Assembly (NCBI RefSeq): GCF_013167455.1
Contig: NZ_CP038332.1
DNA length: 64,000 nucleotides
DNA from: Escherichia coli O157:H7
Lineage (GTDB): Bacteria; Pseudomonadota; Gammaproteobacteria; Enterobacterales; Enterobacteriaceae
Strand: one strand, 5' to 3'
Below, in pieces: positions 16,068 through 22,000 of this stretch (within the stretch, counting starts at the first letter, position 1; every line of letters begins with the position of its first letter). Position numbers: made by a program.

Positions 16068-19000
16068 TTAAGGGAAATTCGCATGTTGTATACAAAAGTC
16101 AACTTTATTGATGCAACAGGATATACCTATTGCTGGGATAGATACTACAGACAAAAAATACTAAGGGGTTCCAAGCCGCAACTGACGATGCCGTTGAGTG
16201 CTGCGCAGACCTGAATATTCCCTTCTTTGTGGATGTCAGAAACAAAAAGCTGGTCTTCTGGTTTGTACGTGTTGATGACGAAGGGTATCCTGAAATAGCC
16301 CGCTGCACGGAGCGGGAGTTTGCGACCATTCTTGCCGGTATCAGCGCCGGCGGCATGTACTGCCCGGAGTGTGGCACGGTTCACTGGCCGGACGGAGTTC
16401 CCCCGCCCTTCTGATGCTTCCCCGTTTTGCCGACATTTTTCAGCAGGGAAACCGCTGGCTTAACTGGCTGGAGAAACAACCGGAAGGTTCAGTGCGTCCG
16501 GTAGTCATTGAGTCTGTGACAAAAATCATGGCCTGCGGGACCACGCTGATGGGGTACACACAGTGGTGCTGTTCATCTCCGGACTGCAGCCACATAAAAA
16601 AGGTCTGCTTCCGGTGTAAAAGTCGCTCCTGCCCGCACTGCGGAGTGAAGGCTGGCGCACAGTGGATACAGTATCTGCTGAGTCTGGTTCCCGACTGTCC
16701 GTGGCAGCATATTGTGTTCACACTTCCCTGCCAGTACTGGTCCCTGGTGTTCCACAACCGGTGGTTACTGGCAGAGATGAGCCGCATTGCTGCGGATGTG
16801 ATACAGGAAATCTGCCGCCAGGCAGATGTGCGACTACGAACTCGAACCACAATCTGCCAGTTGCGCCAAATCTGCTGAACCAGACGTTCGCTCCTGCAGC
16901 ACCAAATCAGGTCTGGGTGGCGGACCTGACGTATGTTGCCACACAGGAGGGATGGTTGTACCTCGCTGGCATCAAAGATGTTTATACGTGCGAAATTGTC
17001 GGCTACGCCATGGGAGAGCGCATGACAAAAGAGCTGACAGGTAAAGCCCTGTTTATGGCGCTCAGGAGCCAGCGCCCACCTGCCGGGCTAATCCACCACT
17101 CTGATCGAGGTTCACAGTACTGCGCATACGATTACCGGGTCATACAGGAGCAGTTTGGTCTGAAAACATCAATGTCGCGTAAAGGTAACTGTTACGACAA
17201 CGCTCCGATGGAAAGCTTCTGGGGAACGCTGAAAAATGAGAGCCTGAGCCACTATCGTTTTAATAACCGGGATGAAGCCATCTCAGTAATACGGGAATAC
17301 ATTGAGATTTTCTACAATCGTCAGCGTCGTCACTCTCGTCTGGGGAATATCTCCCCGGCAGCCTTCAGGGAAAAATATCATCAGATGGCTGCTTAAAAAA
17401 AGAACAAATGGTAGTGTCCGCTATTGCCAGTACACCTCACCGGACCTGGTGATACCGGATGCGCTGGCAGCAGAAGGAAGCAGTAAACGGGACTGGAATC
17501 GCTTCCTGGACAGTCATTACCGGCGGGGCTGGAATGTCAACGTATCCCGGGTGATGGATAACGCCACACATGTGGCGGTGTACTTCGGCTCTTACCTGAA
17601 AAAACCGCCGGTGCCGATGAGCCGTCTGGAGCACTATGCTGGTCAGGATGAAATAGATCCATTTAATTGACGGCGGTGCACTCATGGCACGCAGGCAGTG
17701 TTGAATAAACATCCGTTTTTGGGTGTTTTTTTAATCTTTTTGGGATTTAAATTCCTATCGATCAAGATCATAACTCGCATATCTGTTCTTTTTATGTATA
17801 TCTATATCTATTTTTGTGACGAGTTCAAACCACAATGTTCGCACTCCCCATGCTGCGTTATGAAACATTTCCGCAACGGCTATAGAGTCTGTATTAACTG
17901 CTTCAGTCATGTAGTCGCTAATACGTTCAGCGGTAATTTTCGTTATTTCATCGTAATTCATTTTATCTCCTACAAGATTATTTAAATATCTGGCCTGATA
18001 ATAATGTTCCAGAATTAATATCTGCAGGCTATGTTAAGTTGTCCCCACACACAATCTACCTGTTTTCTCGTGTGTGCCACAGGCGCAATACATAAATAGT
18101 CTGGCCATTAAGTTCGTAACGGATTTCGTACTCGCCAGCAAAAATCCGTCTGACCTCCCTGGGTTCAAACTGAAATAACTGTTCCCCCATACGTGGATGA
18201 GTTAACAGAATGACCGGTGCCTGTGTCAGGGACTGTACCGTTCTGGCGGCAGCAGGTTTACTGGCTAGCACCAGAAAATCATATAACCGCGCCAAATCAG
18301 AAAGCGCTTTACTGCTCCACTTCAGTTCCATCAGCGTGGCACCGGTAACGGATTGTCAGTACTGAGGCTGTCCGCCCAGGCCTGTACAGCCTGATGGTCA
18401 ATAACCTGTCCGGATGTCACATCGTCCAGGGCTTCCAGCGTCAGGCGATTACGCTCCTCCTCCTGGGCAAGCCATGCAGAAAGCGCCTGTTTGATAACCC
18501 AACCCCGGGAGCGTTCCAGTCTGGCGGCCATCTGGTCGACTTTATCAGCCATAGGTAATGGCACATGCGCGGTAATGACTTTTGTTGCTTGTGCGGTATT
18601 GTTTTTCATTTGCATATCCGATTAGTCGTTAATCATATTTAATCATAGTGATTACTTTCAGACGGAACAAGGCAAATAATGCGCGTCAGCGCATGTAAGG
18701 CGGTATACGGAGGTTACATGTAGCACAGGTGTAAAACCGCCGAAGCCCGGCGTAAGCCGGTACTGATTGATGGATTTCACCTTACCCCCCCCCAGCCCTG
18801 CCAGACCATACCCGCTTTCAGCCATGAGAGAGTTTATGTGCGCGGTCGGAGTGGTCCCGACGAGGGTTTACCCGAAGTCGGGGCGTATCTCCGCGTTAGC
18901 GAGCCCTCAGGGCCGCTTACGAGCGTGTACTGAGAACGTTCAGCCAGAAGACTGACAGCGATGATGATGCTTAGTTACAACATTCATAATTAAAAGCGAC

Positions 19001-22000
19001 TCTGTTCCGGCCCTTTGGGCCGGGGCGGGGCCGTTTTTCAGTTATGAGGGAGGGGCTTTGTGGTTTCAGTTCTGCGCGGGACCGGGGTTTTTCTGGAGGT
19101 TGTTTTTGTGTGTTGTAACTAAAGTGGCTCCGGTTGGGGCCCGCCGCTTGCGGTGGGAGGTGCATATCTGTCTGTCCACAGGACAGGCAGTGAATAAGTC
19201 TTTTTTTTAAATGAATGTAATTAAGTAGTTTAAAGGAGATATAAACGGGTGTTTAAAAGATACATTGCACCCTGTAAGCCTGGCGGCTGGTGCTTTATGA
19301 CATGAACGGTTGTAATCTTACAGAGAAATCCCTTGCAGTTTAATGTGGATAAACAAAATTGCCCGTCTGTGAGACGTGTTTTGTATCAAAACAGGGGGGA
19401 CCGGATGCACCAGAAGGTAGATGATGAGGTTGTTTTTGGGATGTGGTGCTGATTTTTTGTGCACCGGCGGGCTTCAGGCGTGCGAATGCCTCCGGCGCGT
19501 GCCGGATTATTCTGAGGAGGTCACTTTCAGGGGGAAGCTGTGGCCAGCCGGCTGTAATTGCGGTTACGTGACAGAATCATGCGCTCCTTCACACGACGCT
19601 CCACTTCGCGTTTTACCGCCTCACGATTAGCAGTGAAGCGCCCTTCCGAGATTTCACGCGTCAGCTGCCGTTTCACCAGGGTGACGATATCCTGACGTTC
19701 CCTGCCCGCATCACGACGCGCACGGGCACGCTTTATTCCCCGTGACTTAAGCTCTGTCTGGTAACTGCGGAAACGCTCACGCACAAAACGCCAGGCTTTC
19801 GCTATCAGTTCATCCATACCCAGGGTATCCAGCCCCTGCTTTTTGCGCAGCCTGTTTTCCCATTCAACACGGCTGCGGCGCGCAGCTGCCACTGCATCCT
19901 CAGACACATCAAGGGCAGCAAACAGAGCCGGTGTGAACGTGATGTCGGTCGGAATGTAGCACCCGATAAGCGGGTCATATTCCGTCTGGTAGGTAATCAG
20001 TCCCAGCTCTGACAGGAACGTCAGGGCCCGGGTGGCACGGGTGATGGAGAGTTTTCCGGCAGCAGACTCCGTCGCCAGTCCGCACTCAATGGCCAGTGTG
20101 GTGATGGAGCACTGGACACGGTTGGCCAGCGGGTCATAGTGAAAACACAGCCCCTGCAGCAGCGCATCAATAGCCCGGCGACGCAGTACCGGTGGCATGC
20201 GCCGACGCAGTCCCTTCGAACGGGCATGTGCCACATGAATGGCGAAATCAAAACGGGAGGTGAAGCCCACCGCCTTTTCCATCAGTTTTTCGCAGAACTT
20301 CAGCGTTCCGGCACCTTCACGGGGTGTGAACACCGGATTCGGGTTCTTTACCTGGCGGTAATACGTTTGTTGAAGATCAGTCACACCATCCTGCACTTAC
20401 AATGCGCAGAAGGAGCGAGCACAGAAAGAAGTCTTGAACTTTTCCGAGCATATAACTATACTCCCCGCATAGCTGAATTGTTGGCTATACGGTTTAAGTG
20501 GGCCCCGGTAATCTTCTCAGTCGCCAAACTTTCTGAAGATTATCGGGGTTTTTGCTTTTCTGGCTCCTGTAAATCCACATCAGAACCAGTTCCCTGCCAC
20601 CTTACGGCGTGGCCAGCCACAAAATTCCTTAAACGATCAGTAATCTAGCACTAATCTTCTGAACACTCAAGAATGTAAGCCCATCATCACACACATCGTT
20701 TTTGCGCTTCACTTTTTATCAGTGCGGTCAGAACTTCAGCCTGAGTCAGGCCATCTTCATGACACATTTGCATGAGCATGGCCTTATACTTTGGTTCAAG
20801 AAATACTTTTACTTCCTTGAACGAAGCTCTTTTACGGGCCACTGATAATCTTTGTTTCTCTGCATCAGAAAGCGGATTCCCCTTTCTGTATGCTCGTTTT
20901 GCGCCAGATGAGGAAGTCACTGCATTTTCTGTCTGCGACATCTCGCCTCCTCAATACTTAAACAGGGATCGTTTCGCAGAGGATACTACAGTTTTTTGAA
21001 ATCAGCGACTTGAGAATTGTGACGAAGATCTGTGTTGGCGCACAAATCAACGGGGATTACTGTCGTTTAATGTGATTTAAACTGTGAAATAGTATGGTTT
21101 TCAGTTATGGAAACGCCGGGAGCGGGGAAAACTTGCTTTTTCCCGTTTCCGGGGTTGGACAACTGAGCAACGCGAAGGCGTCAGCTACGATGTTCCGGTG
21201 ACTGCTGAGCAGCCCCTGTTGTATTCAGCCATTCTCCGGTCATCTGCAGCAGTTTTCTGGCATCGTGGCTTCTGAGCAACGGAATACCAGCCTGCCTCAG
21301 AACCTCTTCCAGAAGAATATCCCGGCGTCTGCGTTCAGGTCGTAAATGGCTGGCATCATATTCACCGCCGGACAGTATTCGCTCTGCATCACCGGTCCGT
21401 ATACCTGCCGCATGCAATTGCATCAGCAAAGGAGAATGCTGATTTACACTTCTGAGGATAATCCGGATAAGTAACGCTGCAATAATCAGAACAATGAGAA
21501 TAAAAATAATCAGCTTCATTGTTTATCTGCTCCTGGTAATTAATTATGCTGAACTATTACCTTACATATTTCCATATTTCTTTTGGTATCCTGTCATATA
21601 ACTTTCCGGTGATTAATTCTGCTAACCGGTGGTCTGCTGCTGAATTAAATGATTCACGTTCACTGGTCGATAAACTGTCTCTGTTTTTATGAATAATTTT
21701 TTCCAGCGTATTGACTGATGAACATCGCCGTAATTGATACAGCCATTCCTGTTTTGTTTTTTCCATTTTTATTCCCGCTGAGAACAGATGAATGATAAGA
21801 TTGCCATCGCTTTATTTACGGTGTCTCCATATCCAGGGGGGAACCGGATCAGCATCTGACCAGAGCCCACGTTTTTGTTGTCTGGCTTCGTTCTGAAGGA
21901 CAGGCAGCACGGGATCTGTGTTGTACTGCTCATATACCCAGGCGGCCCCGGCCCGGACCATAAACTGATTAACATTCATTCCGTCTGGTGCATAAACCTG

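Follow-up and report, generated by a model that had tools for sequence, protein, structure and literature searches.

Genes and features around the segment

The window (the whole stretch of DNA analysed, 64,000 nt) represents plasmid pO157 of Escherichia coli O157:H7 Sakai, and the segment under study (18620-19170) is flanked by a ParE/RHH toxin-antitoxin pair on one side and by oriR of the IncFII replicon on the other. Both toxin-antitoxin genes are on the minus strand, with the ParE toxin at 18056-18331 (ParE_toxin, E = 1.2e-16) and the RHH antitoxin at 18331-18615 (Pfam RHH_1, E = 1.2e-10). On the other side, the replicon encodes RepA1 and CopB on the minus strand (repA1 at 19527-20396) and the antisense CopA RNA on the + strand (20469-20557; RF00042, 99 bits); RepA1 and RepA2 are both annotated in pO157. 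The DnaA box of oriR (TTATCCACA, 19344-19352, read on the minus strand) follows repA at a constant offset in pO157, R100 and the closest relatives. The segment therefore lies where the repA4 region of IncFII plasmids is expected, directly past oriR in a replicon of the RepA1/CopA/CopB type.

We compared the segment with 30 related replicons from Yersinia, Pantoea, Erwinia, Hafnia, Citrobacter and others, whose RepA proteins are 74-98% identical to pO157 RepA1. The initial annotation had described a structured non-coding stretch, and this observation was confirmed, as the segment folds better than its shuffles and contains no conserved ORF. When the 551 nt were folded as single-stranded DNA, the + strand reached -93.5 kcal/mol, a value equalled or bettered by none of 100 shuffles (z = -2.79), and the minus strand reached -86.0 kcal/mol, equalled or bettered by 2 of 100 (z = -2.34). 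The comparative evidence for structure is much stronger than this single-sequence folding. The longest ORFs span 55-64 aa, and none was matched in Pfam or NCBIfam or conserved among the 30 replicons, in line with the earlier view that no convincing ORF is present. The G/C runs quoted in that annotation were located at 19018-19033 (ggccggggcggggccg) and 18786-18802 (ccccccccagccctgcc). Its description of the segment as GC-rich held only against the AT-rich flanks and was weak against the window as a whole (53.7% vs 48.3%), with one third of all 551-nt stretches matching or exceeding this GC content. Conservation, whose absence had been named as refuting the initial proposal, proved to be extensive: at least 5000 plasmids in PLSDB contain the segment, and of the 5426 complete E. 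coli genomes, 4078 have it.

The left end of the segment has a separate affiliation. A promoter scan returned a single promoter-like match within 18300-19600, on the minus strand at 18629-18661, where it coincides with a direct repeat formed by tandem TTAATCATA copies. These repeats are the probable operator of the toxin-antitoxin operon, and the site is part of the neighbouring toxin-antitoxin cassette and not of the replicon module; most IncFII plasmids lack this stretch. Homology to other plasmids starts at a tight hairpin (ATGCGCGTCAGCGCAT, 18679-18694; query position 60), which marks the left edge of the conserved module, resembles a terminator on the minus strand and folds better than all of its shuffles (z = -4.1 and -3.8; 0 of 200 as good). 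R100 and R64 keep a hairpin at the equivalent position with another stem sequence (ATGCCGCATCAGCGGCAT).

Ter sites and the repA4 reading frame

We found two inverted Ter cores 130 bp apart within the segment. Ter site A (TTTTTGTGTGTTGTAACTAAAGT; 19103-19125, + strand) carries the exact core GTTGTAACTAA, and Ter site B (ATTATGAATGTTGTAACTAAGCA; 18990-18968, minus strand) likewise has an exact core. Both 23-mers fully satisfy the Ter consensus (23 bp; G6, purine at position 8, core G10-TTGTAACTA-19), with G6, R8 and G10-A19 all in agreement in site A, which is also identical to E. coli TerB of MG1655 at positions 10-23. Site B ends in AGCA, as does TerE. Among the 30 replicons, site A is kept at the same offset in 27 (at most one core mismatch) and site B in 28, while no other strict-consensus Ter was detected elsewhere in their flanks. 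The distance from G6 of Ter site B to the core of the structured element described below is constant across replicons at about 102 nt. Together with an identity of about 91-94% to the R100 region, these two perfect cores bear out the placement of the segment, in the initial annotation, at the position of repA4 and the termination sequences of IncFII plasmids.

The polarity of the pO157 sites was calibrated on TerB and tus of MG1655, where TerB reads 5'-AATAAG...-3' on the + strand and stops clockwise forks. With this calibration, the non-permissive face of Ter site A points to lower coordinates and that of Ter site B points to oriR, so that the orientation of both is consistent with polar fork arrest. 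Judged from the sequence, site A would stop forks heading to oriR and repA1, and site B would stop a fork returning via repA1 and oriR after one round; the two sites, facing each other, are predicted to form a small fork trap. By position and polarity, site A corresponds to terRL of plasmid R1 and site B to terRR. In R1, terRL and terRR are sited between oriR and the leading-strand start, and loss of the Tus/Ter stop leads to rolling-circle over-replication, multimers, instability and plasmid loss. Tus binding and fork arrest are described for these R1 homologues, and we infer them for the pO157 sites from the literature and by reasoning.

The same stretch contains what is left of the historical repA4 ORF, a truncated remnant of 64 codons on the minus strand (18971-19165; ORF comparison), so that an intact repA4 ORF is missing here. 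Some RefSeq records label the homologous stretch as a 128-aa 'replication-associated protein RepA4', and repA4 is counted among the genes in older plasmid papers, which would favour a protein encoded on the minus strand. This reading is hardly credible in pO157 and is already largely refuted, since the frame ends after 64 codons (64 aa here vs 128 aa in R100) at a TAA inside Ter site B. A start codon is present in only 8 of the 30 replicons and the frame length varies from 0 to 128 aa, whereas the DNA elements are 85-97% conserved. In the annotation of other plasmids the frame is frameshifted, interrupted by an internal stop or split (one RefSeq record reads 'frameshifted; internal stop'), and a Pfam and NCBIfam search with all four local ORFs and the 128-aa RefSeq RepA4 assigned no family to any of them. 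The repA4 region itself contains ter sites and is reported to be needed in cis for the stability of NR1, and TraDIS on pEC958 found it to be required for maintenance. According to this analysis, 'repA4' is the name of a region, and the ORF is not functionally required.

Structured elements of the + strand

No other non-coding block downstream of repA is as well conserved in the 30 replicons as a multi-stem element of 95 nt on the + strand (18840-18930), which has an identity of 0.85-0.97 per 10 nt and a single copy within the window. It is composed of an outer stem around a nested stem-loop (CGGAG...CTCCG) and a second stem-loop (GCGAGCCC...GGGCCGC), directly followed by CTG at 18930-18932. 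Across its 28 pairs, 98.4% of alignment cells are paired and 8 pairs are altered on both sides; none of 500 shuffles equalled the observed pairing, and slid controls reached 31-54%. G·T cells outnumber A·C cells by 50 to 5, which indicates that it is the + strand that folds. pO157, R100 and R64 have the CTG behind the last stem, but the majority of the divergent replicons lack it. The element sits just past Ter site B, where the leading-strand start of R1 is described.

A second structure, a long imperfect hairpin (18992-19038, + strand; an inverted repeat), lies between the Ter sites and has the layout AAAAGCG...CCGGCCC TTT GGGCCGG...CGTTTTT, that is, an A-tract, a GC stem and a T-tract. Five of its pairs show compensatory changes over 26 replicons. 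The hairpin also contains many T·G pairs possible on the + strand only, and its energy is lower on that strand (-13.3 vs -10.0 kcal/mol on the minus strand). Smaller elements accompany these two. A small GC hairpin (GCCCGGCGTAAGCCGG; 18745-18765, + strand) is followed by TACTG, forms a direct repeat with 18922-18933 and might contribute to the priming signal discussed below as an accessory element; its conservation is 0.68-0.69, and it occurs in most related replicons and is missing in five. Next to it on the + strand, a run of nine C is followed by a conserved CCCTGCCAGACC and a short hairpin (18785-18816, identified in the alignment; conservation of 0.76-0.77 over 18797-18816). At the oriR border, a GC hairpin (CCCGCCGCTTGCGGTGGG; 19139-19156, + strand; conservation of 0.77-0.84) is paired in the minimum-energy fold and partly kept in R64.

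The layout of the inter-Ter hairpin looks like that of a bidirectional intrinsic terminator, and it could serve as a transcription insulator shielding oriR and the priming element from transcripts that arrive from either side, a tentative reading that would complement the main explanation and not replace it. The A-tract, GC stem and T-tract, the stem kept with compensatory changes in 26 replicons, and the retention of the hairpin in R64 (IncI1), whose sequence is unrelated past this point, all speak for such a role. On the other hand, the T run is just 4-5 bases long and is paired with the A-tract, and the wobble bias to the + strand would be unexpected of a truly bidirectional terminator.

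The same structures could in principle be parts of a + strand small RNA of about 200 nt, as the initial annotation had suggested, with its body at 18840-18930 and a terminator at 18992-19041, running toward oriR and acting on replication or on neighbouring genes. Consistent with this, the + strand is the preferred folding strand of both conserved structures, the terminator-like match at 19000-19030 is followed by TTTTT on that strand, the covariation is as expected of a structured RNA, and RT-qPCR with 'repA4' primers finds RNA in another IncFII plasmid, in an assay that is not strand-specific. However, Rfam 15 returned no match in 18620-19170 at E <= 1 and recognised only CopA (20469-20557), the + strand of 18300-19600 contains no promoter-like site, the alignment upstream of 18837 shows no conserved -35/-10 elements, and no ncRNA is annotated under the homologous matches listed. 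The text of a strand-specific RNA-seq study of pO157 reports nothing for this region. The strand bias of folding is also explained by replication, because the + strand is the leading-strand template and stays single-stranded from oriR to the priming site. The small-RNA suggestion thus found no support in these searches, and we consider it very unlikely.

We instead read the multi-stem element as a signal in replicating DNA. Given its position, strand and structure, on which the identification with the published G-site rests, 18840-18930 is best read as a primase priming signal (G-site) on the leading-strand template, and it probably marks the start of DNA copying. As in a G-site, the stem-loops lie on the single-stranded leading-strand template, and the geometry of the region suggests that the + strand is the template for synthesis away from oriR. 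That primase acts here, and at which nucleotide the strand starts, is proposed from the literature or by reasoning. Primase priming at the G-site was reportedly described by Masai and Arai (1989) and by Jiang et al. (1993).

The structured element also occurs without a strict Ter match or RepA in four of six contigs from a viral collection. Independent use of the element was considered and dropped, as the one contig inspected among them (L044) is an R64-like (IncI1-type) remnant in which Ter site B is mutated.

Proposed replication start and stop in comparison with known systems

Taken together, the segment is very probably the cis-acting 'repA4 region' of the IncFII replicon, which organises the start and stop of replication and is not a gene. 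The proposed mechanism builds on the observed sequences, orientation, conservation and spacing of the elements, on their covarying structure and on the strand that folds. RepA1 would open oriR (~19166-19352), and the duplex would be unwound toward lower coordinates. Once exposed, the + strand, as the leading-strand template, would fold into the stem-loops at 18840-18930, where host primase would begin the leading strand, probably at the CTG at 18930-18932, and synthesis would then proceed away from oriR and round the plasmid. Tus bound to Ter site A (19103-19125) would halt movement back to oriR and repA1 and make replication unidirectional. Tus bound to Ter site B (18990-18968) would halt the fork returning via repA1 and oriR, some tens of bases short of the priming point, and the helicase would therefore not peel off the finished strand, which would avoid rolling-circle over-replication and multimers.

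Two further observations speak against this explanation. The blocking face of Ter site B, which keeps a fixed 40-nt distance to the priming element, should meet a helicase loaded at oriR before that element is reached. In addition, the structure and covariation fit folded single-stranded DNA and a + strand RNA equally. Tus at Ter site B might act as an initiation gate in addition to its stop function, or the multi-stem element and the inter-Ter hairpin might form an undescribed small RNA. The observed conservation, covariation and bias to one strand would fit either case, and we regard this pair of readings as improbable.

Under the preferred reading as a cis-acting repA4 region, the segment is real, functional and ordinary, an already known feature that forms part of the machinery for the stable inheritance of IncF virulence and resistance plasmids. 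For annotation, it should be labelled with Ter sites and a priming signal, in place of the 'RepA4' or hypothetical protein found in many records. The fixed spacing between Ter site B and the priming element across Enterobacterales adds a detail to a known system and no new principle, and the presence of the same cassette in IncI1 plasmids is likewise an added detail.

Beyond plasmids, the 23-bp consensus of the chromosomal TerA-J sites of E. coli is common to the pO157 sites, and Ter site A agrees with TerB throughout the core and at 17 of 23 positions in all. The arrangement differs, in that the pO157 sites are 130 bp apart beside the origin of a unidirectional replicon, whereas the chromosomal sites flank a terminus hundreds of kb wide. 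In the complementary-strand origin of phage G4, the template strand likewise forms GC-rich stem-loops, the last of them followed closely on its 3' side by CTG, and the two can be read in a parallel layout, GTGC...CGGAG...CTCCG...hairpin...TACTG, although the stem-loop sizes differ and the CTG is not kept in divergent replicons. Sequence homology to the G4 origin was evaluated and is not claimed, as the local alignment score fell within the shuffle distribution. A covariance model of the structured element found no match on G4, the 12-nt match of the hairpin at 18745-18765 to G4 stem-loop I was not significant, and when the segment was compared by BLAST with 50,697 phage records, the only matches were short and at chance level, none of them to G4-like phages.

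Among plasmids, the IncI1 plasmid R64 has a G-site-like element identical to that of R100, and its equivalent of 18679-19050 (Ter site B and both hairpins) is 93.5% identical to R100. R64 lacks Ter site A, and its oriV and Rep protein are unrelated beyond the equivalent of about 19050. The segment itself is 91.2% identical to R100 over 18679-19050 and 94.2% over 19051-19170; the few substitutions relative to R100 include C to T in a hairpin 3' arm (CCGTTTTT in pO157, CCGCTTTT in R100). The downstream neighbour is tir-pemI-pemK in R100 and the ParE/RHH pair in pO157. The terRL/terRR trap of R1 and the repA4 region of R100/NR1 occupy the same place downstream of repA1 and oriR, and in R1, as in pO157, two inverted Ter sites of agreeing polarity are found between oriR and the priming-type element.

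Replicon setting and conservation of the segment

The non-coding segment at 18620-19170, for which the depositors' annotation holds no feature, is the Ter/priming module of IncFII plasmids, a real, functional and strongly conserved module that is already known. The segment (551 bp) is 100% identical to pO157 of E. coli O157:H7 Sakai (AB011549.2, 73770-74320, reverse strand) and sits in a complete IncFII-type replicon. CopB/RepA2 (20687-20941) and RepA1 (19527-20396), the protein genes of this replicon, are on the minus strand and the CopA antisense RNA is on the plus strand (20469-20557; Rfam RF00042, 99 bits, full length); after a DnaA box (19344-19352) comes the AT-rich part of oriR. 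PLSDB MOB-suite typing gives IncFIA/IncFIB for this plasmid, although the replicon found here is of the RepA1/CopA IncFII type. Directly past the repA1 stop codon, a plus-strand GC hairpin followed by TTATTCTG (19491-19506; conservation about 0.8 across replicons) faces into repA1. On the other side of the segment lie an RHH antitoxin (18331-18615) and its partner, the ParE toxin (18056-18331). The first 59 bases of the segment (18620-18678) are part of this toxin-antitoxin cassette, and a minus-strand promoter-like site immediately 5' of the RHH antitoxin gene (18629-18661) overlaps two tandem TTAATCATA repeats, together probably forming the autoregulated promoter/operator of the ParE/RHH pair. 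IS91 and IS600 transposase gene fragments just past the pair (window 16369-17700; 795-2051 in the related locus L001) fit the mosaic make-up of pO157.

The initial annotation described a structured, GC-rich stretch without a convincing ORF, and we confirmed this description, of which "GC-rich" is the weakest part. Both quoted G/C strings are present (19018-19033 and 18786-18802), the ORFs span 50-64 aa with no protein-family matches, and either strand of the segment, folded as single-stranded DNA, is more stable than its dinucleotide shuffles (plus, z = -2.79; minus, z = -2.34). Its GC content is 53.7% compared with 48.3% for the window, a modest rise, as one third of equal-sized windows are as high. 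The proposed IncFII repA4/termination position was also supported, as was conservation across related plasmids: at least 5000 PLSDB plasmids carry 18679-19170 at 90-95% identity, as do 4078 of 5426 complete E. coli genomes, where it is nearly always plasmid-borne. For divergent comparison, we used 32 loci with RepA relatives (74-98% aa identity to pO157 RepA1, one genome per species), taking in Yersinia pestis, Pantoea, Erwinia, Hafnia, Serratia, Citrobacter and Salmonella arizonae, and built an alignment of the 1 kb that follows repA in 28 of them, pO157 and R100 (30 replicons). Contigs with near-identical or related IncFII repA (L009, L010 and L012) are listed as belonging to a Lachnospiraceae MAG, Streptomyces morookaense and Candidatus Nanosynbacter; the likeliest explanation is that enterobacterial plasmid DNA contaminated these assemblies.

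A 128-aa "RepA4" is annotated over the region in some RefSeq records and is frameshifted or split in others. The pO157 repA4 frame stops after 64 codons, at a TAA inside Ter site B. Eight of the 30 replicons retain its start codon, and frame lengths vary between 0 and 128 aa, so repA4 is not a conserved gene. The conserved thing is the DNA, not the reading frame, so cis elements are the best explanation for the published finding that the "repA4 region" is needed for stability.

Two Ter sites and the hairpin between them

Two exact copies of GTTGTAACTAA lie in inverted orientation within the segment. Ter site A (19103-19125, plus strand; 23-mer TTTTTGTGTGTTGTAACTAAAGT) and Ter site B (18990-18968, minus strand; 23-mer ATTATGAATGTTGTAACTAAGCA) match the Ter consensus at G6, at position 8 (purine) and throughout the core, and positions 10 to 23 of site A are the same as in E. 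coli TerB. Allowing at most one core mismatch, a Ter site was found at the site A equivalent in 27 of the 30 replicons and at the site B equivalent in 28, and the strict Ter pattern had no further match elsewhere in their flanks. Polarity was calibrated on the MG1655 chromosome (TerB, tus), where TerB reads 5'-AATAAGTATGTTGTAACTAAAGT-3' on the plus strand just before tus and blocks clockwise forks (moving to higher coordinates), so that the blocking face is the position-1 side. Site A is thus predicted to block forks heading to oriR/repA1 and site B those coming from the oriR side, and from their motifs and orientation the two together would be a small trap. A single core change from GTTGTAAC to GCTGTAAC or GATGTAAC is often seen in one Ter site while the other is perfect (loci L015, L016, L017, L021, L024, L025, L032, L033, L034 and L037), and one trap arm may be weakened in some lineages. 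We also observed an exact 13-nt direct repeat, GAGGTTGTTTTTG, flanking oriR in pO157 (19096-19108 and 19426-19438); one copy overlaps the edge of site A, the Ter A-side copy is not conserved in R100, and the repeat may be chance or lineage-specific.

Between the sites lies a long imperfect hairpin (18992-19038) whose two sides carry an A-tract and a T-tract, respectively. The hairpin scores terminator-like, shows compensatory changes in both outer and inner stems across relatives, contains T·G pairs that can form on the plus strand only, and is more stable on the plus than on the minus strand (-13.3 vs -10.0 kcal/mol). This hairpin could reasonably act as a bidirectional transcription insulator or belong to the single-stranded gap that separates oriR from the priming site.

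A conserved structured element as candidate priming signal

No other part of the non-coding region downstream of repA is as conserved across the 30 replicons as 18837-18928 (per-10-nt identity 0.85-0.97), which surpasses even oriR. RNAalifold predicted an outer stem around two stem-loops; with an inner stem of three pairs that we added, the structure comprises 28 pairs, with 98.4% of cells paired and eight pairs changed on both sides, covariation that by itself does not separate folded DNA from folded RNA. None of 500 shuffles reached the observed pairing, covarying pairs or covariation score, and sliding the partners by 1-3 columns reduced pairing to 31-54%. G·T pairs read on the plus strand filled 50 cells and A·C pairs (G·T on the minus strand) only 5, which argues that the plus strand is under selection to fold; this strand serves as template when synthesis runs away from oriR, to lower coordinates. 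A small RNA, as the initial annotation had suggested, could likewise account for the strand bias and the terminator-like hairpin if it were encoded on the plus strand, and a transcript map of the region was not found in the literature. However, no Rfam family matches the segment, no promoter-like site was detected on the plus strand by the scan or is visible in the 30-replicon alignment, and none of the homologues listed carries an ncRNA annotation, making a small RNA very improbable.

The position, strand and architecture of the element fit a primase-dependent priming signal, of which the R1 example is the G-site that Masai and Arai reportedly described in 1989. Primase prefers the trinucleotide CTG; one occurs after the last stem (18930-18932) and is not conserved in the divergent replicons of the alignment. 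The distance from Ter B to the element core (~102 nt) is fixed in nearly all replicons, and a covariance model detects it once in the window. In L034, a Salmonella arizonae contig, the element is missing downstream of Ter B and the same slot holds a different ~150-nt element with a long hairpin, AATTGTCAAC..CTGAATCG...CGATTCAG..GTTGACAACT, then GGGCCATCGCCCTGC; L008 (Escherichia sp.) has this L034-type element and also the usual one, in partly deleted form. The L034/L008 element may be an alternative priming signal.

Comparison with G4, R64 and R1

The phage G4 origin, the prototype priming signal, has no detectable sequence similarity to the structured element. The covariance model also detected a copy in the IncI1 plasmid R64 (L048, NC_005014.1, 1500-2400) identical to that of R100. 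R64 and R100 share the equivalents of 18679-19050 at 93.5% identity, a cassette comprising the left hairpin (18679-18694), the structured element, Ter B and the inter-Ter hairpin, whereas past a sharp boundary identity falls to ~45-50%, Ter A is absent, and the origin and Rep are unrelated. Because the R64-type version stops there, many partial database matches end near query position 431, and the same sharing accounts for L044, the one inspected of four Ter-less viral-collection contigs. The priming/termination cassette thus seems to have been exchanged between replicon families.

With its blocking face toward oriR, Ter B should confront an oriR-loaded helicase with Tus before the priming element is exposed; the same geometry is described for R1, and we found no explanation in the literature for initiation passing Ter B. 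In R1, priming occurs immediately past the second ter site, and the plasmid is copied by the clockwise fork, which halts at terRR; loss of Tus makes maintenance unstable and gives rise to branched forms, multimers and rolling circles. Site A corresponds to terRL and site B to terRR in both position and polarity, and the two-Ter arrangement of pO157 is that of the published R1 picture.
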